A DNA stretch of 64,000 bases, taken from NCBI GenBank assembly GCA_016861085.1, contig BOKR01000001.1:761696-825695 (forward strand). Reading direction: 5' to 3'. Made by a program: the position numbers and the translations under genes. Under the pieces are notes generated by a model. The model searched no databases and was not told the DNA's origin. It saw nothing but the letters and a program-made list of their open reading frames with translations. This stretch comes from Patescibacteria group bacterium (GTDB taxonomy: Bacteria > Patescibacteriota > Microgenomatia > UBA1400 > PJMF01). Below are positions 2,529-62,601 of this stretch, piece by piece; within the stretch, counting starts at the first letter, position 1, and each line of letters starts with the position of its first letter.

Positions 2529-3779
2529 TTAGAAACGGTATAACATTATGAGGGTCTGCAATAACATATTACTGGAAAAAAATAAGAGCAACACCAAAAA
2601 AACTATTACGAATTGTTTTTTTTGCAATTTTTTTAACAAAAAATCAATAAAATAGGCAACTGCGATGCTCAATTGAGGCAAAACACTTACAAACATTCTT
2701 GAACCATATGGACCTCCAATAATTTCTGGTCCCCAGCTGGCTACAACGTAAAGCTGTAGTAAAAAAGCAATCAATGAAATAGTTCCTAATATGGTTACTT
2801 TTTCCTTCAATTTTCTAATCAAAAAAAGAACTGCAAATCCTAGTACTGGTGCGAAGAAAAACAAACCATTTTCTAGAGTAAATAATACTCTAATAAAATC
2901 AGGCTTAAACCAGTTGAGCTGCTCACCTCTCATAAGATACGGACTCCCTAATACACCAAAAAGAGTAACGGTAGTCAAAAACTGAATACCCATAACCACA
3001 AATGCACTCCCACTAAAAAGAATCGCCCAATTCAGCTTATGCAACAAACTTTCTTTTTGAACTATAAACAAGGTGATAAATATAGGTAAAACTACAACTA
3101 AATCTTGATTCCGTACTAACATCAGAAACCCCGCAGTTACTCCCATGGGAATCACATTTTTCCAAGTAATTCTTGAGTGTAGTACTCTTGAAATTTGGTA
3201 GAATAACAACGCTGATAATAGAAATGATATTGAATGGGAATTAACTGGATCAATAGCAGTGTAATAAAATAACTGTGTTGAACAAAATAACAATATGGTC
3301 GTAAATATTGTAACCTTTTTACTAAACCACATACTCATAGTTTTAAAAACAAACCATAGCCCCAAGACACTAAAACAGACTGCCGTAACACTTACAGAAA
3401 GCTGAGGCAACAAACCATAGCCATCTACTAAAAAAAGGGTTCCTCCAACAACAGTATTACTAGCCAAAGCCACTGTTTGTCCCAACACAAAACCGGGTAT
3501 CCAGAATAGGGCAGTGCCGGGTGAAAATTTGTTGGTAACCATTCCTGTTCTTGGAGAGATTTCTGGTGCATTGGGAAAACCTAAATTTTTATGAAAGGCC
3601 TCATTACTAAAATCAATATCCCGATCCATGACGATCGATCTTGTGTACGCATAATAATAAAGACTATCACCCCAAATAATACTTTTTACCCTAAGCAAAA
3701 CCAAGATATACAAAAACAGACTTACTATAAAAAGTAAAACAAAAAAATGCTTCTCGGAAATCAGATTCCTTCTTATCAC
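2529..3779 (-). CDS. polytopic membrane protein, GT-C-like (PMT/ArnT-type) glycosyltransferase candidate
   Basis: Eleven or more predicted TM helices. The hydrophilic loop near the N-terminus (YYYAYTRSIVMDRDIDF) resembles the GT-C DxD loop. Confidence 0.4.
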   Translation of the reverse strand: MIRRNLISEKHFFVLLFIVSLFLYILVLLRVKSIIWGDSLYYYAYTRSIVMDRDIDFSNEAFHKNLGFPNAPEISPRTGMVTNKFSPGTALFWIPGFVLGQTVALASNTVVGGTLFLVDGYGLLPQLSVSVTAVCFSVLGLWFVFKTMSMWFSKKVTIFTTILLFCSTQLFYYTAIDPVNSHSISFLLSALLFYQISRVLHSRITWKNVIPMGVTAGFLMLVRNQDLVVVLPIFITLFIVQKESLLHKLNWAILFSGSAFVVMGIQFLTTVTLFGVLGSPYLMRGEQLNWFKPDFIRVLFTLENGLFFFAPVLGFAVLFLIRKLKEKVTILGTISLIAFLLQLYVVASWGPEIIGGPYGSRMFVSVLPQLSIAVAYFIDFLLKKLQKKQFVIVFLVLLLFFSSNMLLQTLIMLYRF

Positions 3780-3801
3780 AATACAGGTAGAATACTATAA
3801 A

Positions 3802-4206
3802 CTACTTCTGTATCCAATACCGCGCTTCAGCTTCACTTGAGAACCATGCTAATTTTGCTCCCAGATCACCAGTAAAAGTCAAAATAAAGTTGGCAATGGA
3901 GACCTGAGCGTCTGATGAACCCAGTACCGCCACTTTAGCAATTCTCTGATCAGAAACAAACTTCATGTATACTTCTCTTGCTTTAGGAGAAATATGGCTT
4001 TTACTTCCCATTGGGCGTAAGTCTACAATTACCTTTGCCGGCGTACTAAATCCTTTTTCGGCAATCAGAGCAAAGCACTTCTCAGCACCAGCTTGTGCTT
4101 GAATTGCGTTCTTTTCATCATCATATATTGCTTCTAAAAACGAAACAATAAGAATATCATTCTTGTCTGCATTTACCACCACGGTATCTTCAATTTTTAG
4201 TTGCAT
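3802..4206 (-). CDS. hypothetical protein
   Basis: 134-aa ORF with no recognisable motif. Confidence 0.4.
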   Translation of the reverse strand: MQLKIEDTVVVNADKNDILIVSFLEAIYDDEKNAIQAQAGAEKCFALIAEKGFSTPAKVIVDLRPMGSKSHISPKAREVYMKFVSDQRIAKVAVLGSSDAQVSIANFILTFTGDLGAKLAWFSSEAEARYWIQK

Positions 4207-35402: not shown

Positions 35403-35717
35403 CTCCCCGAGTAGGATTCGAACCTACAACCTGCCGGTTACATATAACCCATCTATTTCTAGACGGTATGGACTATCTCATTACCATATTCACCATTTGG
35501 CAAAATTAGGCACTGGGTACTCTAGGGTGTACTCACCTAGTCTCTGAACCTTCTTCGTAATATCTTACAAAGCTCGGCTGCGGATTACCATATTCTTGTA
35601 AAAAACAAAAACACAGGCTTCCCGCAATTCACCCAGTTATCATTCCAAAGTTTCCTTTGGAAGCTGCGATTTTGGAATGTTTCACAGCCGGACGCTCTGC
35701 CATTGAGCTATCGGGGA
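35403..35717 (-). tRNA. tRNA-Asn(GUU) interrupted by a group I intron
   Basis: Exons (34 + 38 nt) splice to UCCCCGAUAGCUCAAUGGCAGAGCGUCCGGCUGU|UAACCGGCAGGUUGUAGGUUCGAAUCCUACUCGGGGAG. Cloverleaf with anticodon loop CUGUUAA, U1-A72 and G73 as in E. coli tRNA-Asn. CCA is not encoded. Confidence 0.75.
35441..35683 (-). ncRNA. group I (IC3-like) self-splicing intron in the tRNA-Asn anticodon loop (between nt 35 and 36)
   Basis: 243 nt. The 5' exon ends in U. P1: exon GGCUGU pairs with the internal guide GCAGCU. P2 hairpin UUCCAAAG-GAAA-CUUUGGAA. Conserved CCGCAGCCGAGC and GGUUCAGAGACUA (P7 region). The intron ends in G before UAACC. Confidence 0.7.
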
Positions 35718-55121: not shown

Positions 55122-55206
55122 GGCGGAGGTGGAGGGGTTCGAACCCACGAATCCCGAAGGATCACGCTTTCCAGGCGTGTGCAATTGACCACTATGCGAC
55201 ACCTCC
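55122..55206 (-). tRNA. tRNA-Ser(GGA)
   Basis: Type II tRNA GGAGGUG...CACGC-CUGGAAA-GCGUG. Long variable arm AUCCUUCGGGAUUC. T-loop UUCGAAC. One U-U mismatch in the T-stem. CCA is not fully encoded. Confidence 0.7.
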
Positions 55207-57843: not shown

Positions 57844-58188
57844 ATGAAACGTTTGAAAACCATTCTCATCATCGCCAGTTTCTTGATTGGGCTGGCCCTC
57901 CTGGTTGGGTGCGCAAGCGCCCCAACCTCCGCGCCGGCGGCTCCGGCAACCACAACATACGTTGTCACAAATGAAGATGCCCGCTCCGTTGACACCCCGG
58001 CCATCACGGCCGAAGTCACCTGGGACGGCTCTTCCTGGACCTGCAACGTCCAGAACTGCGCCCAGAACAAGCAGATCAATGGCAATACCATGGAATTCTG
58101 GGTTTCCATGGTCAAAATCGCCACGGAAGACGTTGACAACCCCGGCCAACTAATCCCTGAACCCGGCTTTACAGTCTCGGTTAAATAG
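57844..58188 (+). CDS. high-GC small lipoprotein, hypothetical (probable horizontal acquisition)
   Basis: MKRLKTILIIASFLIGLALLVGC (lipobox LVGC), then an Ala/Pro/Thr linker. One 60-nt line counts 42/60 G+C, against AT-rich flanks. Confidence 0.6.
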   Translation: MKRLKTILIIASFLIGLALLVGCASAPTSAPAAPATTTYVVTNEDARSVDTPAITAEVTWDGSSWTCNVQNCAQNKQINGNTMEFWVSMVKIATEDVDNPGQLIPEPGFTVSVK

Positions 58189-58279: not shown

Positions 58280-58702
58280 TTAATGAGAACTCAACAAACC
58301 AGGATGCTCAGCAGCAATTTTTATAATTTTTTTAAGCGTTGGCAGATTGACTTGTTCTATTTTCTTGAATCGAATGCAGCTTTTACCAACACTGACTTTA
58401 CCTAGTTCGTTCTTATATTTTTCAGCTACATACTCATTATCAACTACGCTACAAATATATACACTCACATAGTTTTTTTGATTAGCTAAAGCAATCACAG
58501 GCCATTCACCTTTTTCTTTTTTGTAATTGGTGTAAGGAAAAGAACCATACCCAATCATATTTGAAGCAAAATGAGGTTTTAGTGTTGGGGCATTTTCTTG
58601 GATAAAAGCGTGAAGAAAATTGATTATTTCTTGACGATCTTCAGGGACTGCATCTATATAAGATTTAATTGATGCAGCTTTGATGGATTTAAACATGTTC
58701 AT
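58280..58702 (-). CDS. DUF1801-domain protein
   Basis: ...YIDAVPEDRQEIINFLHAFIQE... pattern. Confidence 0.55.
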   Translation of the reverse strand: MNMFKSIKAASIKSYIDAVPEDRQEIINFLHAFIQENAPTLKPHFASNMIGYGSFPYTNYKKEKGEWPVIALANQKNYVSVYICSVVDNEYVAEKYKNELGKVSVGKSCIRFKKIEQVNLPTLKKIIKIAAEHPGLLSSH

Positions 58703-58740
58703 TTGTAACTATTGTAACAAATAACTGTTATTGGCGGAGC

Positions 58741-58857
58741 ACCCGGGTCTGGAACCCGTGCGGCCTTATAACCGCTCACTCCACTATGGGTAATTATACT
58801 CAAAATGAGACAAATGGGACACTATAAAAAAGGAGCGTCTTGTTTTTATGAAACAAA
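58741..58857 (+). repeat. repeat family copy 1 (part A hairpin GCGGAGCACCCGGGTCTGGAACCCGTGCGG, part B GACAAATGGGACACTATAAAAAAGGAGCGTCTTGTTTTT)
   Basis: Shares 30-40-nt blocks with the copies at 60154-60210 and 61050-61193. Confidence 0.55.
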
Positions 58858-58862
58858 ACTAT

Positions 58863-58899
58863 TGACAACAAATTAGCAGTCTGATAATATGATTGCTAA
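58863..58899 (+). promoter_or_regulatory. sigma70-like promoter overlapped by a CIRCE-like inverted repeat upstream of the Hsp20 gene
   Basis: TTGACA (58863-68), 16 nt, TAATAT (58885-90). TTAGCAGTC-N9-GATTGCTAA (58873-58899) versus CIRCE consensus TTAGCACTC-N9-GAGTGCTAA. Confidence 0.45.
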
Positions 58900-59028
58900 T
58901 AAGGTGCAAAGGATGTACACATACGCTTTGAGCAGCGAAGTGGTCCTAAATAAGACATCTTGTATTGTGATACATCAGTTTCACCTTTTGATAGTTAGTA
59001 AGTATTAATTAAAAGAAAGGAAAAGACT

Positions 59029-59469
59029 ATGTCACTCGATTTAGTTCCAAGAAGATTACTTTCATTCCCATCTATGGTACCTTCAATTTGGGATAATGAT
59101 GATGATTGGTTTACTGCTCCATCTACCCAAACAGGTTTGTCAATTTCTGAGGATGAGCAGAAAGTGTATGTAGAAGCTGCTCTCCCAGGAATTAATCCAG
59201 ACAACATTGAAGTTACCTATCAAGACGGTTATGTTTGGATAAAAGGAGAACAGCAAGAAGAAGAAAGTGATAAGAAAAAGAAGTATTATCGAAAAGCCTC
59301 AAATGCTTTCTCATACAGAGTTGCTGTTCCTGGTGAAGTTGATTTAAATAAAGAACCAGAAGCAACTTATGAGCATGGAGTGATGAAAGTATCCTTCATG
59401 AAATCTGAGGCAAGCAAGCCAAAGAGAATTGCTATTAAGCAGAAAAAGCAGCTTGGTAGTGGGAAATAA
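59029..59469 (+). CDS. Hsp20/alpha-crystallin family small heat-shock protein
   Basis: Alpha-crystallin domain ...VYVEAALPGINPDNIEVTYQDGYVWIKGE...YEHGVMKVSF. Confidence 0.85.
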   Translation: MSLDLVPRRLLSFPSMVPSIWDNDDDWFTAPSTQTGLSISEDEQKVYVEAALPGINPDNIEVTYQDGYVWIKGEQQEEESDKKKKYYRKASNAFSYRVAVPGEVDLNKEPEATYEHGVMKVSFMKSEASKPKRIAIKQKKQLGSGK

Positions 59470-59577
59470 TCTTGTAGCTTCTGTTTGTTGGGCAGAAACA
59501 TTTTGTTTCTGCCCAAATAAGAGAGGTTAACCATTAATTTCTCTAATTAATTAAGGTTTTCTGAATGTTTTCGCGAT

Positions 59578-60114
59578 ATGAATAAAAAAGTTGGTTTATA
59601 TAATTATCCAATCAGAAGTAGCACCATTGTTACTGCAATGGGAATAGGTTCTGTAGTGCTTTTTGGTATTTTGTTGAGTCTTGTTAGTTATATACCTTTA
59701 ATGTTGCTAAAAGAAATCCTTGCTCCTGAAATTTCTATTACTTTTACCTCCATACTTATACAGATAGCTATTCTTGTTCTAGTGAGTTTTGGAATCATTT
59801 CACTCCTAATGAAGTGGGTTGGAACTTCTTATGTGATTAAAGACAATGAAATTATTGTTCAAAATGGACTATTTAATATCAAACAAAAAATTTATCCACT
59901 TGAGGGTCATGAAGAAGTTAAGATTTATAAATCATTCTTTGGAAAAATTTTTGATTATGGAACGCTATCAATTTATCAGCCCATGCTTCAAAAGTATGTC
60001 ACACTAGAGAATATCCAAGATCCTGATTTATTTGCAGAAGTAGTTAGACAAACTAAGTCAAAAGAATCACTTAGTTCAGAAAAGGTTATTTTTTCAAGAA
60101 AAAAGAGAAAATAA
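59578..60114 (+). CDS. membrane protein with bacterial PH (bPH_2/YdbS-like) domain
   Basis: Two TM helices, then YVIKDNEIIVQNGLFNIKQKIYPLE...LSIYQP. Confidence 0.6.
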   Translation: MNKKVGLYNYPIRSSTIVTAMGIGSVVLFGILLSLVSYIPLMLLKEILAPEISITFTSILIQIAILVLVSFGIISLLMKWVGTSYVIKDNEIIVQNGLFNIKQKIYPLEGHEEVKIYKSFFGKIFDYGTLSIYQPMLQKYVTLENIQDPDLFAEVVRQTKSKESLSSEKVIFSRKKRK

Positions 60115-60153
60115 ATTTGTTTTACAAATATCAACTTATACTTGGATATCCCT

Positions 60154-60210
60154 GTAGTTCGAATCCTGGGATGCGGAGCATGTGGGTCTGGAACCAGTGT
60201 GTCCCCTAGC
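60154..60210 (+). repeat. repeat family copy 2 (GTAGTTCGAATCCTGGGATGCGGAGCATGTGGGTCTGGAACCAGTGTG)
   Basis: Same hairpin with conserved loop TCTGGAA and a partly compensatory stem. Abuts the cupin gene stop. Confidence 0.5.
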
Positions 60211-60213
60211 ACA

Positions 60214-60543
60214 CTATCTAGCCATAGTGAGCAACATCTTGAACTGTTTTGCTGCCTGCAAAGCATGCGGTGTATTGGCAGGTAAAATAAGTACCTGACC
60301 TTCGTTAACTTCGTATTTTTTTTCATCAACTGAAATAATTGCTTCACCATCTAGAATTTGCGCAAAAGCAGTAAAAGGAGTTGTATGCTCACTTAAACCT
60401 TGTCCTTTAGCAAAAGCAAATGCAGTGATAGTAGTTTTTGTGGTTTTAATAAGTTCCCTGCTCACGATAGAGCCACTTTGGTACTCGACGACATTTTTTA
60501 GAACATGCGGCGATATGGTTAGATTATATGTTACTTCTGTCAT
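60214..60543 (-). CDS. cupin-domain protein
   Basis: ...GEAIISVDEKKYEVNEGQVLILPANTPHAL. Confidence 0.6.
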   Translation of the reverse strand: MTEVTYNLTISPHVLKNVVEYQSGSIVSRELIKTTKTTITAFAFAKGQGLSEHTTPFTAFAQILDGEAIISVDEKKYEVNEGQVLILPANTPHALQAAKQFKMLLTMAR

Positions 60544-60565
60544 AATAATATCCTATCATGAAAAC

Positions 60566-61012
60566 CTATTTCAATTGGGTGAGTATACTATCTGCCCATT
60601 GTCTACTTTTTTGATATGTAGCCTGGTTTGGGTAGCCATCAATTTGAAGAACTGGTTCAAGAATATTTCCTTGCATTGGCTCAATTTTTTCACTACTTAT
60701 TTTTCCGCTTGTTGCAAAATGGGGATAACTAGAATCACCAAGTGAGAAAAAAGCAAAATGTGTATTGTTGCAATTATGATTTTGTTGATCAGCTGTTGAA
60801 AAAAATAATTCAGTAATTGGGTTTAAGTCTCCATCCCCATACGTAGAGCTACCAAAAAAAACCAACTCATGCTCTTTTAGTTGATCGGGATTGGTATTAA
60901 TAACATCAAATAACTCTGCTTTGTGACCATTATTATTTAGATAATCAACGAGATCATTAGCTACAAGCGCCGTATTTCCCGATAGAGTAGAAAATGTTAC
61001 TGCAATTTTCAT
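60566..61012 (-). CDS. flavodoxin-like fold protein
   Basis: MKIAVTFSTLSGNT...FFGSSTYGDGD. Confidence 0.6.
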   Translation of the reverse strand: MKIAVTFSTLSGNTALVANDLVDYLNNNGHKAELFDVINTNPDQLKEHELVFFGSSTYGDGDLNPITELFFSTADQQNHNCNNTHFAFFSLGDSSYPHFATSGKISSEKIEPMQGNILEPVLQIDGYPNQATYQKSRQWADSILTQLK

Positions 61013-61049
61013 ATGACTTTTATTTTAGTTTCACAAGTCCTCGTCACTG

Positions 61050-61204
61050 TAGTTCGAATCTTAGGATGCGGAGCACGCGGGTCTGGAACCCGTGCGTCGT
61101 TATAACTGTCCCATTCCAGGATCGAGCTTCCAGGGTAATTCTACCAAAAACGGGACAAATGGGACACTATAAAAAGAGAGTGTCTTGTTTTTGAAGCTCG
61201 ATCA
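61050..61204 (+). repeat. repeat family copy 3 (part A and part B, with flanking 11-nt inverted repeat GATCGAGCTTC/GAAGCTCGATC)
   Basis: Part A GTAGTTCGAATCTTAGGATGCGGAGCACGCGGGTCTGGAACCCGTGCG. Part B GACAAATGGGACACTATAAAAAGAGAGTGTCTTGTTTTT. Confidence 0.55.
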
Positions 61205-61445
61205 TTTTGCTATTTTCACCACAAGCATTCGTTATATTATTTTGCCTATTCATCCAACCTTTGGTTGGAATCAATTAAAGAAATGTTTTACAATTTGTAC
61301 AGATAACTATTAGAGAGTTTGGAGCTAGCTTCAAAAAGAACTGTTAGGCTTAACACAAGATTTTAGTTATAATGGTTTAGCATATCTTGCAACTCAAGTA
61401 TTTATTTCGTCATTCTGAGTAAAGAATGGTAATTGAATTTGCCCT

Positions 61446-62408
61446 ATGGTTAACAACCTACTACTACAAACAATAATTTATATCGTATGCTTTTTTTTGG
61501 TATGGATTGGAGCTGGCCTAGTTGTTTCTCCGATATCCGATCTCTCCAAATCTTGGAGGCTTCCACGATTTATTATCTCTTTTTTCTTACTAGGTATTCT
61601 TACTTCGCTCCCTGAAATCACGATTAGTACCATAGCCATCCTGAACAACGACCCGGTCATAGTCGCTGGTAACTTATTAGGGGGAGTTATTGTTATGTTC
61701 TTGGGAGTAATTCCTCTTTTGGGTTTAGTGGGCAATGGAGTAAAAATGCCCACTCAGCTCAACAAGAAACAACTCATCATTACTCTTTTAGTTGTGGTTG
61801 CTCCGGCTTTCCTAACTGCTGACCAAAAAATTGGCCAATACGAAGCGATTTTCTTGATTTTGCTTTATCTTAGTTTATTCGTCATGTTTTCTTTCAAGCA
61901 ATCATTTTTTGAAAAGATCAAAACTGGAATAATCAGCAGGAAAAAGAATAGCATGGGACATCTCTTTAAGATTGTGCTTGGGGTTTTAATTTTAATTGGA
62001 GCTAGTAATCAAATTGTTAATTCGACTCTGTTTTTTGCAGATATGTTTAAAATATCTCCATTTTTTGTTAGTTTGATTGTAGTTGCTTTGGGGACCAACA
62101 TACCTGAAATCTCAATTGTTTTCCGCTCAGTTTTGAGTGGTAAAAAAGACATTGCACTAGCTGATTATCTTGGCTCTGCTAGTGCGAATACATTACTTCT
62201 TGGTATTTTCACCCTGATGCATGGAGAAACCATCCAGCTGCCCAACCACTTTTTTCAACGATTTTCTTTCTTAGCAGTAGGACTTATCTTATTTTTCTTC
62301 TTTGCTCGATCTAGAAACACGCTGTCTCGAAAAGAAAGTGCCATTTTACTCTCGCTATACCTGGGATTTATCATGTTTGAGATGCTGCTTATAGCACGTT
62401 TGAACTAA
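61446..62408 (+). CDS. CaCA-family cation/calcium exchanger (YrbG-like)
   Basis: Two alpha-repeat regions (LPEITISTIAIL...GNLLGG; GTNIPEISIVF...LGSASANTLLLG). Ten TM helices. Confidence 0.65.
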   Translation: MVNNLLLQTIIYIVCFFLVWIGAGLVVSPISDLSKSWRLPRFIISFFLLGILTSLPEITISTIAILNNDPVIVAGNLLGGVIVMFLGVIPLLGLVGNGVKMPTQLNKKQLIITLLVVVAPAFLTADQKIGQYEAIFLILLYLSLFVMFSFKQSFFEKIKTGIISRKKNSMGHLFKIVLGVLILIGASNQIVNSTLFFADMFKISPFFVSLIVVALGTNIPEISIVFRSVLSGKKDIALADYLGSASANTLLLGIFTLMHGETIQLPNHFFQRFSFLAVGLILFFFFARSRNTLSRKESAILLSLYLGFIMFEMLLIARLN

Positions 62409-62516
62409 CTTACGCGGCTGTTGAAGCGAAAAATGTTCAAATCAAGGGAATTTAGCAAGCCACATCAACCCATTTAACGCTATTAGACGGGTCTATCAGG
62501 GAAAAATCAATATATG

Positions 62517-62601
62517 CGGAGGCAGTGGGATTTGAACCCACGAACCAGAAACCTGGTACGGGTTAGCAACCCGTTGCAATCGGCCACTATGCGATGCCTC
62601 C
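62517..62601 (-). tRNA. tRNA-Ser(GCU)
   Basis: GGAGGCA...ACGGG-UUGCUAA-CCCGU, long variable arm ACCAGGUUUCUGGUUC, T-arm GUGGG-UUCAAAU-CCCAC, acceptor UGCCUCC-G. Confidence 0.8.

Follow-up and report, generated by a model that had tools for sequence, protein, structure and literature searches.

In a 64,000-nucleotide stretch of contig BOKR01000001.1 from a Patescibacteria group bacterium (hereafter the window), we analyzed three copies of a short polar repeat, which we interpret as junction (attachment-type) sites of an integron-like gene-cassette hot spot anchored at tRNA-Ser genes. Our confidence in this interpretation is evenly balanced. The repeat has a defined anatomy, resembles the 3' end of tRNA-Ser and is linked to tRNA-Ser genes, marks one-sided breakpoints, occurs in arrays and is accompanied by one clean cassette insertion beside the fixed side of the element, the platform. 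From this, we infer an exchange by site-specific recombination, with a crossover inside GCGGAGCA, the first part of the conserved core, and a recombinase encoded elsewhere. The interpretation is favored because the breakpoints are one-sided and precise, because a sequence differing from the real tRNA is identical across species, and because the repeat interchanges with tRNA-Ser ends. Confidence stays near the midpoint because of the lack of a nearby recombinase, the many solitary copies, insertions without a core, and possible artefacts of metagenome-assembled genomes (MAGs). Cassette hot spots at tRNA-Ser appear to be common in Microgenomates/Patescibacteria.

The core of the repeat comprises 23 nt, i.e., 20 invariant and three free positions (GCGGAGCA-NNN-GGGTCTGGAACC), and starts at 58734, 60173, and 61068 on the plus strand of the window, with no copy expected by chance. 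The 12-mer GGGTCTGGAACC alone occurs three times in the 64 kb, compared to 0.06 occurrences expected from shuffled sequences. Copies 2 and 3 carry an additional 5' block (GTAGTTCGAATCYTRGGAT at 60154 and 61049), of which copy 1 retains a degraded trace, and copies 1 and 3 carry a 3' block (GACAAATGGGACACTATAAAAA... at 58809 and 61154), which forms a hairpin followed by TTGTTTTT; neither block was expected by chance. The original prediction, made from the sequence alone, had recognized the three copies, both additional blocks, and the gene content (DUF1801, Hsp20 with a bPH_2 membrane protein, and cupin with flavodoxin), while its positions for the copies (58744, 60169, and 61072) were off by 4–10 nt. 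An 11-bp inverted repeat, thought to enclose the whole of copy 3, does exist, but it brackets only the 3' block of this copy (61120–61130/61193–61203). Across the region, the genes follow each other in the order DUF1801, Hsp20, bPH_2, cupin, flavodoxin, and then a Na/Ca exchanger. The cupin open reading frame (ORF) ends at 60214, i.e., 3 nt past copy 2. In copy 2, the 5' block is arranged tail-to-tail with the core and looks like the 3' end of a GCATCC..GGATGC tRNA.

A scan of one genome per species revealed the exact core at at least 118 loci in ~101 assemblies. The tail of the element (see below) was sought in metagenomes, with matches at at least 120 loci (L120–L239). Nearly all titled assemblies with the core belong to Patescibacteria, mainly to Microgenomates-type groups (Shapiro-, Woese-, Gottesman-, Levy-, Davies-, Roizman-, and Pacebacteria). 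Numerous further assemblies are titled "uncultured Pseudomonadales/Gammaproteobacteria"; we judge these labels unreliable, because two of the Pseudomonadales titles belong to isolates HK-STAS-PATE-15/16 and the DNA is of the same kind. One or two matches (e.g., Phytomonospora) look like chance. In the flanks of core loci, nhmmer identified ~20 more diverged copies. The family is widespread and tied to gene boundaries, so that a restriction of the repeats to this region, considered in the original prediction, does not apply. A scan of viral contigs yielded a single match, carrying neither an integrase nor a tRNA, and the core is therefore not a common phage attP site. The repeats had no match in Rfam 15, either at the gathering threshold or at E ≤ 10, and literature searches by topic and sequence motif returned no earlier description; the family is thus previously undescribed.

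In the plus orientation of the window, an element consists of the optional 5' block, the core, ~10 nt, a TATAAC/TATAGC box, a variable stretch of 20–35 nt, an ATTnTA box, two direct GAGACA/GGGACA repeats with 9-nt spacing, TATAAAAAGG, and an inverted GTGTCTC arm, which is often followed by a TGATATAGTTTGATATA motif. The long 3' module is present in 85 of the 133 listed copies, the 5' block in only nine (window, L006, L073, and L079). We saw no terminal inverted repeats, the boundary of the element is one-sided, and both flanks are never covered by a single alignment.

Read on the minus strand, the core (GGTTCCAGACCC-NNN-TGCTCCGC) is a tRNA-Ser-like 3' end, comprising T-arm and acceptor and ending in ...CTCCGC. 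It matches the 3' end of tRNA-Ser(GCT) in the window (GGTTCAAATCCCACTGCCTCCGC) at 17 of 23 positions. When all tRNAs in the fetched loci were compared, tRNA-Ser 3' ends agreed with the core at 13–16 of the 20 specified positions (mean 14.4), and the means of the other tRNA types ranged from 10.3 to 13.3. The alternative of a tRNA 5' half (acceptor and D-arm) read on the plus strand was discarded, with at most 11 of 20 positions for the best tRNA 5' end compared to the mean of 14.4. Cores are not copies of the resident tRNA, since they read TCTGGAA where real genes have ATTCGAA or ATTTGAA, and their sequence is identical at 20 positions across ~100 species. A direct repeat identical to the 3' part of a resident tRNA was not seen for the cores and is represented only by a separate 17-nt fragment in L079. 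Neither ARAGORN nor the Rfam tRNA model found a cloverleaf at the elements of the window; the likeness is limited to the 3'-end sequence. Linkage points to the same tRNA: tRNA-Ser accounts for 34 of the 52 tRNAs near cores in the genome loci and for 49 of 90 over all loci, and core/tRNA-Ser pairs are co-oriented in 46 cases and not in 9, with the core mainly downstream. ARAGORN and Rfam detected only two tRNAs in the window, both of them tRNA-Ser on the minus strand and together bracketing the region.

Cores and tRNA-Ser genes also share their neighboring sequences. A conserved module, termed M-left, stands behind tRNA-Ser(GCT) in the window and behind real or vestigial ends of tRNA-Ser in six other loci, and it adjoins the GCGGAG end of the core in eight other loci (beyond the window, M-left was found in L090, L073, L062, L107, L031, L010, L018, L052, L015, L087, L045, L096, and L025). 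It contains the invariant sequence CTTGCTAA, is ~80–87% conserved across genera, and always lies 12–16 nt from the tRNA-Ser 3' end or the GCGGAG end of the core. M-left had no match in Rfam and no consensus fold on the strand tested; it holds a possible degenerate core (GCGG-N8-GGGTCT). Similarly, the 5' block directly follows a real tRNA-Ser(TGA) in L081 and follows the core in arrays. In tRNA sense, an intrinsic terminator stands directly after 12 of 125 cores, similar to the situation at tRNA genes and compared to 2% of random positions, and in L079 the same terminator occurs after the real tRNA-Ser(CGA) and after the last core. With respect to these neighboring modules, cores and real tRNA-Ser 3' ends are interchangeable, which is the signature expected if DNA had repeatedly been joined immediately after ...CTCCGC. 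L079 additionally harbors, at 3633–3665, an exact 17-nt duplicate of the 3' end of its tRNA-Ser(CGA) (3767–3853). This duplicate adjoins M-left ~100 bp downstream of the tRNA, represents a displaced tRNA fragment of the classical type, and suggests that integration of the T-loop type has taken place in this locus as well.

All-vs-all blastn of the genome loci returned 54 alignments in which homology extends for kilobases on the box/module side and ends at GCGGAG; in 36 of these, the end lies no more than 2 nt away from it. Six alignments keep the opposite side and end inside the core, and none crosses the core. A single insertion could be resolved by comparing the window to its close relative L006. 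Here, window 60164–61091 (core of copy 2, cupin, flavodoxin, and core of copy 3) is 99.2% identical to L006 6070–6997, and identity is 93% between window 61044–61453 (copy 3 and the beginning of the Na/Ca exchanger region) and L006 7590–8000; left of copy 2, the two have nothing in common. Between the shared segments, L006 carries an extra 592–595 bp with a GNAT acetyltransferase ORF and its own box, core, and 5' block. This cassette lies exactly between two repeats of 5' block and core and directly adjoins the long-form site, i.e., the platform, as the newest cassette of an integron would. Copy 3 of the window is a hybrid of the two L006 sites: its 5' block variant (CTTAGG) is that of the first, while it shares the box, the long module and, almost, the NNN triplet with the second, which places the exchange point within GCGGAGCA. 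The combination of long module, core, and Hsp20 unit recurs beside tRNA-Ser(GGA) in L038, and also in L011.

Arrays in which the 3' ends of ORFs adjoin box and core were found in L079, L003, L020, L031, L039, L006, and the window. Their units consist of an ORF, a TATAAC box, and a core, measure 0.4–1.5 kb, contain single genes, and are all co-oriented on the tRNA strand. L079 comprises six cores, five of which follow in series downstream of tRNA-Ser(CGA) with one minus-strand ORF between each. The stop codons of these ORFs are located in or beside the TATAAC box. The array is headed by a long module that lacks a core and is closed by a terminator after the last core. Genes neighboring the cores encode 233 proteins in 182 clusters, including accessory types such as GNAT, histidine phosphatase, HAD, APH, PhzF, HD, DUF952, MFS, ABC, flavodoxin, and DUF1801; a regulon was ruled out as an explanation because these proteins are too diverse. 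Likeness to tRNA-Ser, location downstream of tRNA-Ser, synteny breakpoints, and arrays all speak for one of the readings put forward in the original prediction, that of a cassette array with tRNA-fragment attachment sites.

Of 81 distinct long copies, 73 have an ATTnTA box (minus strand: TAnAAT) in the long module, with a constant spacing of 59–60 or 70 nt from the start of the core, and the TGn extension of an extended -10 box is present in 43 of 79 long copies. In copies 1 and 3 of the window, the box points through the core toward the downstream genes, and in 60 of 72 long-form copies the gene past the core is oriented away from it. TGTTATAAT is used by both tRNA-Ser genes of the window, where TGnTAnAAT shows a modest excess (31 occurrences vs. 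20 ± 4). Based on its sequence and placement, we infer that TAnAAT would act as the -10 box of a working promoter.

When metagenomes were scanned for the tail of the module alone (AATGNGACAAATGNGACANTATAAAA), it was present at at least 120 loci, and a core-like sequence could be recognized within 135 nt of only 70 of 111 tails. Many of the others are joined to relatives of the core, e.g., GGCTCCCC-N4-CGGTCTAGAAC. GGTCT and a few other positions are 91–99% conserved over the whole tail set. Tails with such relatives of the core contain a second copy (nnCGGTCGGG) ~70 nt further on that co-varies with the first, and the 4–6 bases before it form a co-varying direct repeat with those before the first copy (e.g., L204, L201, L137, L187, and L207). 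As tails often lack a core, we regard the tail as the older and more general module and the core family as one branch that became joined to it. Two further functions of the tail were considered and rejected. AAGGAG-N-GTG after the tail does not mark a gene start, as an ORF of at least 60 aa follows in no more than 17 of 185 copies and the GTG is part of the inverted GTGTCTC arm. Nor is the tail a general promoter of tRNA genes, with an ARAGORN tRNA within 400 nt of only 4 of 185 copies. An antisense tRNA immediately next to a tail was called by ARAGORN only in L235; three intron-bearing tRNAs lie inside elements. One of these, at L073 403–505 (minus strand), matches the Rfam tRNA model with 45.3 bits, has a ~33-nt insert in the anticodon loop, was missed by ARAGORN, and is situated between the TAnAAT box and the core. 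Similar sequences are present in L035 and L115, and the stem of the insert co-varies among the three. The 3' end of the L073 tRNA is similar to the 5' block found in copies 2 and 3 of the window.

The hairpin proposed in the original prediction, with an invariant loop and a partly compensatory stem, is apparent in the three local copies, but not in the family: over 91 distinct copies, the stem outside the invariant GG/CC pairs is paired at 70.7%, compared to 70.0% in shuffles, and no covariation was found. When single sequences of the minus strand were folded, the variable region and the GGGAC adjoining the box repeatedly paired with GUUCC..CCCnnnUGCUCC of the core. G-U pairs favor this strand, the mean z-score is -1.4, and native NNN triplets fold better than random ones (mean percentile 0.30, p = 3e-5, 39 cluster representatives), an effect that is also seen, more weakly, on the plus strand. 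RNAalifold found no common minus-strand fold across subfamilies, and the pairing register differs between them. We read the minus-strand folding as a weak imperfect palindrome, which is compatible with a folded single strand of DNA or RNA, but is not proof of one. The 3' block hairpin contains G-U pairs of the plus strand and is followed by a T-run in the window and in subfamilies B and C, whereas A-runs follow it in subfamily A.

Taken as a mechanism, the site-specific reading would work as follows. The 20 invariant nt mimic the T-arm and the acceptor 3' end of tRNA-Ser, and DNA would be exchanged exactly at the end of ...CTCCGC. A cassette would comprise one or two tRNA-sense genes ending in TATAAC box and core, with the box often providing the stop codon, and the next unit would begin right after CTCCGC, in this lineage with the 5' block. 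The ~85-nt module that the long form adds in copies 1 and 3 would represent the fixed platform side, whose TAnAAT/TGnTAnAAT box points through the core into the cassettes and whose GAGACA/GGGACA repeats are probably protein-binding sites. The recombinase would act from elsewhere in the genome. A further step, which we put forward tentatively and regard as rather doubtful, would be that Patescibacteria (Microgenomates) own a dedicated integron-like gene-capture system of a different build, with conserved tRNA-Ser 3'-end mimics as attachment sites, a platform with its own promoter and repeated protein-binding boxes, and a recombinase that is encoded elsewhere in the genome and possibly of an unrecognized type.

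Several observations weigh against recombination at these sites. The original prediction had proposed a search for a nearby integrase or tyrosine recombinase. Using XerD and gamma-delta resolvase sequences as phmmer queries, we found no tyrosine or serine recombinase in the window or the 118 genome loci (DDE, HUH, and IS110-type enzymes were not probed), and no integrase gene stands beside an intact tRNA in any of them. The 120 metagenome loci contained one match (1 in 240 loci overall), so that the probes do work. Most core copies are solitary rather than part of arrays, and other genes were inserted in these regions without a core at the junction. The -10 box is not accompanied by a convincing -35 box, a simple scan for sigma-70 promoters and terminators did not flag the boxes of the element, and DUF1801 has its own TGTTACAAT box by the start codon. 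As the tail is far commoner than the core and is joined to other sequences, it may serve as a general regulatory region and not belong to a recombination site. Moreover, RecA recombination between dispersed repeats, or exchange after natural transformation, could yield breakpoints at repeats, and conserved repeats can cause chimeric joins in MAGs, which make up most of the loci.

The single recombinase match, a tyrosine-recombinase-like ORF of 234 aa at L184 119–823 (minus strand) that is possibly truncated, starts ~215 nt past a tail module, which is itself preceded by two core-like GAGCAGTGTGGTCACGGA repeats. At L080 2059–3475, and identically in L017, a 1417-bp insertion relative to L022, L024, and L157 encodes a hydrolase and a NUDIX protein; it directly follows the tail module and ends without a core or another repeat.

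The repeats might alternatively be a dispersed regulatory or RNA element, i.e., a mobile promoter/terminator or a hairpin of the 3' untranslated region (UTR) similar to repetitive extragenic palindromes (REP), that insulates and drives its neighbors and whose minus-strand transcript would form a ~50-nt imperfect hairpin with the core as 3' strand; synteny breaks would then be secondary and caused by homologous recombination between copies. The conserved TAnAAT box with matching orientation of downstream genes, the wide occurrence of the tail module alone, and the minus-strand folds with their G-U bias, z-score, and NNN percentile agree with this. Its transcript is less consistent with a pairing register that varies by subfamily, the missing common fold, and an NNN effect that is modest and present on the plus strand too. 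Furthermore, homologous recombination predicts neither the 54:6 one-sidedness nor breakpoints within 2 nt of one end, and it leaves the link to tRNA-Ser and the interchange with real tRNA-Ser ends unexplained. We consider this explanation unlikely, if still worth keeping in view. It is distinctly unlikely that the cores are passive scars, i.e., decayed and displaced 3' fragments of tRNA-Ser without present function, left by islands whose tyrosine integrases were lost. Such scars would explain why cores lie downstream of and co-oriented with tRNA-Ser genes, and L079, with its genuine 17-nt duplicate by M-left, and L184, with an integrase-like ORF near a related element, fit them as well. Scars would, however, decay independently, while the cores are identical at 20 positions in ~100 species, carry TCTGGAA in the place of the T-loop, and are not copies of the resident tRNA (17/23 for tRNA-Ser(GCT) of the window). 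Islands also predict a conserved host flank, whereas the conserved flank here is the module side, by 54 to 6, and the units are single genes of 0.4–1.5 kb rather than islands.

A plus-strand small RNA, another reading offered in the original prediction, would start at or before GCGGAGCA, hold the GGG-TCTGGAA-CCC hairpin, and end at the terminator of the 3' block. The 3' block of the window and of subfamilies B and C, with its plus-strand G-U pairs and T-run, has the appearance of such a terminator. Against this stand the A-runs of subfamily A and the short-form copies without a terminator, a hairpin without covariation or Rfam match, and sequences upstream of GCGGAGCA that are unrelated between copies, so that there is no shared plus-strand promoter. 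We therefore regard a small RNA as very improbable.

Integrons, including clusters of attC sites without an integron integrase (CALINs), share with the site-specific reading the arrays of small, co-oriented, mostly single-gene accessory cassettes, a recombination-type site at the end of each cassette, often overlapping with the stop codon, a platform side that is fixed and bears an outward promoter-like box, the newest cassette beside the platform (one resolvable case here), and the typical cassette content (GNAT, cupin, DUF-type, and small hypothetical proteins). They differ in the integrase, as no IntI gene was found in the window or the 118 genome loci, and in the site, which is conserved here in primary sequence (20 invariant nt) and in attC in structure. 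The TATAAC box has no GTTRRRY partner, and there is no R''/R' palindrome (RYYYAAC/GTTRRRY); together with the hairpin lacking covariation, this leaves the attC-like reading of the original prediction unsupported. Also peculiar to the present system are tRNA-Ser 3'-end mimicry, arrays anchored at tRNA-Ser genes, and Patescibacteria as hosts. Genomic islands at tRNA genes, including tandem ones, likewise have co-oriented, tRNA-3'-like direct repeats downstream of an intact tRNA, with a junction exactly at the tRNA end and the original flanks (terminator and M-left) moved to the far side. In contrast to island repeats, ours does not copy the resident tRNA but is a separate sequence conserved across species, each unit is a single gene of 0.4–1.5 kb, no integrase was found, and the variable side is opposite to prediction. 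REP and bacterial interspersed mosaic elements (BIME), Neisseria dRS3/NIME with "minimal mobile elements", and pdif modules of Acinetobacter plasmids are also short, conserved intergenic repeats bounding exchangeable modules, can sit in 3' UTRs or between cistrons, and rely on enzymes in trans. Those repeats are palindromic or XerC/D sites and usually of high copy number, whereas the element described here is polar, low-copy, tRNA-like, and equipped with a promoter-like module. In the manner of "t-elements" and the tRNA punctuation of organelles, a tRNA-like 3' portion is found between coding units on the sense strand and could, by analogy, signal RNA processing; it differs from these in having T-arm/acceptor-like sequence only, with a mostly unpaired T-stem and no conserved 5' acceptor strand.

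Bacteria of the candidate phyla radiation have tiny genomes with few recognizable mobile elements, and there is almost no genetics for them. To our knowledge, it is largely unknown how they gain and shuffle accessory genes. The 23-nt core is a conserved and easily searchable marker that pinpoints variable loci in ~100 species with junctions at single-nucleotide resolution, which makes cassette turnover directly testable in population metagenomes. It also gives a starting point for identifying the enzyme and for introducing genes into these organisms. If recombination is site-specific, an integron-like architecture would have evolved a second time, independently; otherwise, the repeat is still a clear case of a portable promoter/tRNA-mimic module spreading across a phylum. 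Coordinates of the window features are compiled in Table 1.

Table 1. Repeat copies, their modules, and neighboring genes in the window.
Feature	Position	Strand	Description
tRNA-Ser(GGA)	55122–55206	-	bounds the variable region on the opposite side
DUF1801 gene	58280–58702	-	directly past the GCGGAG end of copy 1, pointing away
Copy 1	58734–58772	-	core GCGGAGCA-CCC-GGGTCTGGAACC (58734–58756) and TTATAAC box (58766–58772)
Copy 1, minus-strand reading			GTTATAA..GGTTCCAGACCCGGGTGCTCCGC, tRNA-Ser-like 3' end
Copy 1, long module	58793–58848	-	ATTATA box (minus strand: TATAAT) 58793–58798; GAGACA/GGGACA direct repeats 58807–58821
Copy 1, rest of long module			TATAAAAAAGG loop, inverted arm GCGTCTT, T-run
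Hsp20 and bPH_2 membrane protein	59029–60114	+	Hsp20 59029–59469, bPH_2 59578–60114; between copies 1 and 2
Copy 2, 5' block	60154–60172	+	GTAGTTCGAATCCTGGGAT
Copy 2, short form	60173–60211	-	core (60173–60195) and degenerate box
Flavodoxin and cupin	60214–61012	-	flavodoxin 60566–61012, cupin 60214–60543; cassette on the tRNA-sense strand between copies 3 and 2
Copy 3, 5' block	61049–61067	+	GTAGTTCGAATCTTAGGAT
Copy 3	61068–61106	-	core (61068–61090) and TTATAAC box (61100–61106)
Copy 3, long module	61120–61203	-	TGGTAGAAT (extended -10-like box, minus strand) 61138–61146
Copy 3, long module after the box			GGGACA repeats, hairpin, T-run; bracketed by the 11-bp inverted repeat
M-left	62409–62500		~95-nt conserved module just 3' of tRNA-Ser(GCT)
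tRNA-Ser(GCT)	62516–62601	-	co-oriented with the cores, upstream of the array

Regarding the individual genes of the region, the extended -10-like box of DUF1801 (TGTTACAAT, 58711–58719, minus strand) ends ~8 nt before the start codon; an mRNA starting from it would be nearly leaderless and independent of the element's own box. At 58862–58905, the promoter of Hsp20, which is close to consensus (TTGACA-17-TAATAT, with TG), and a CIRCE-like inverted repeat (TTAGCA-N15-TGCTAA) overlap, and this operator-like sequence suggests heat-shock control of the HrcA type. Outside the region, at 35449–35693 (minus strand), a full-length Rfam match to group I introns (79.8 bits) is surrounded by small ORFs only, with no rRNA or tRNA gene called around it. 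Within the interval between the two tRNA-Ser genes, a lipoprotein-like ORF without a Pfam match (57844–58188, plus strand) has a GC content of 52% against a background of 33–38% and was probably acquired horizontally.

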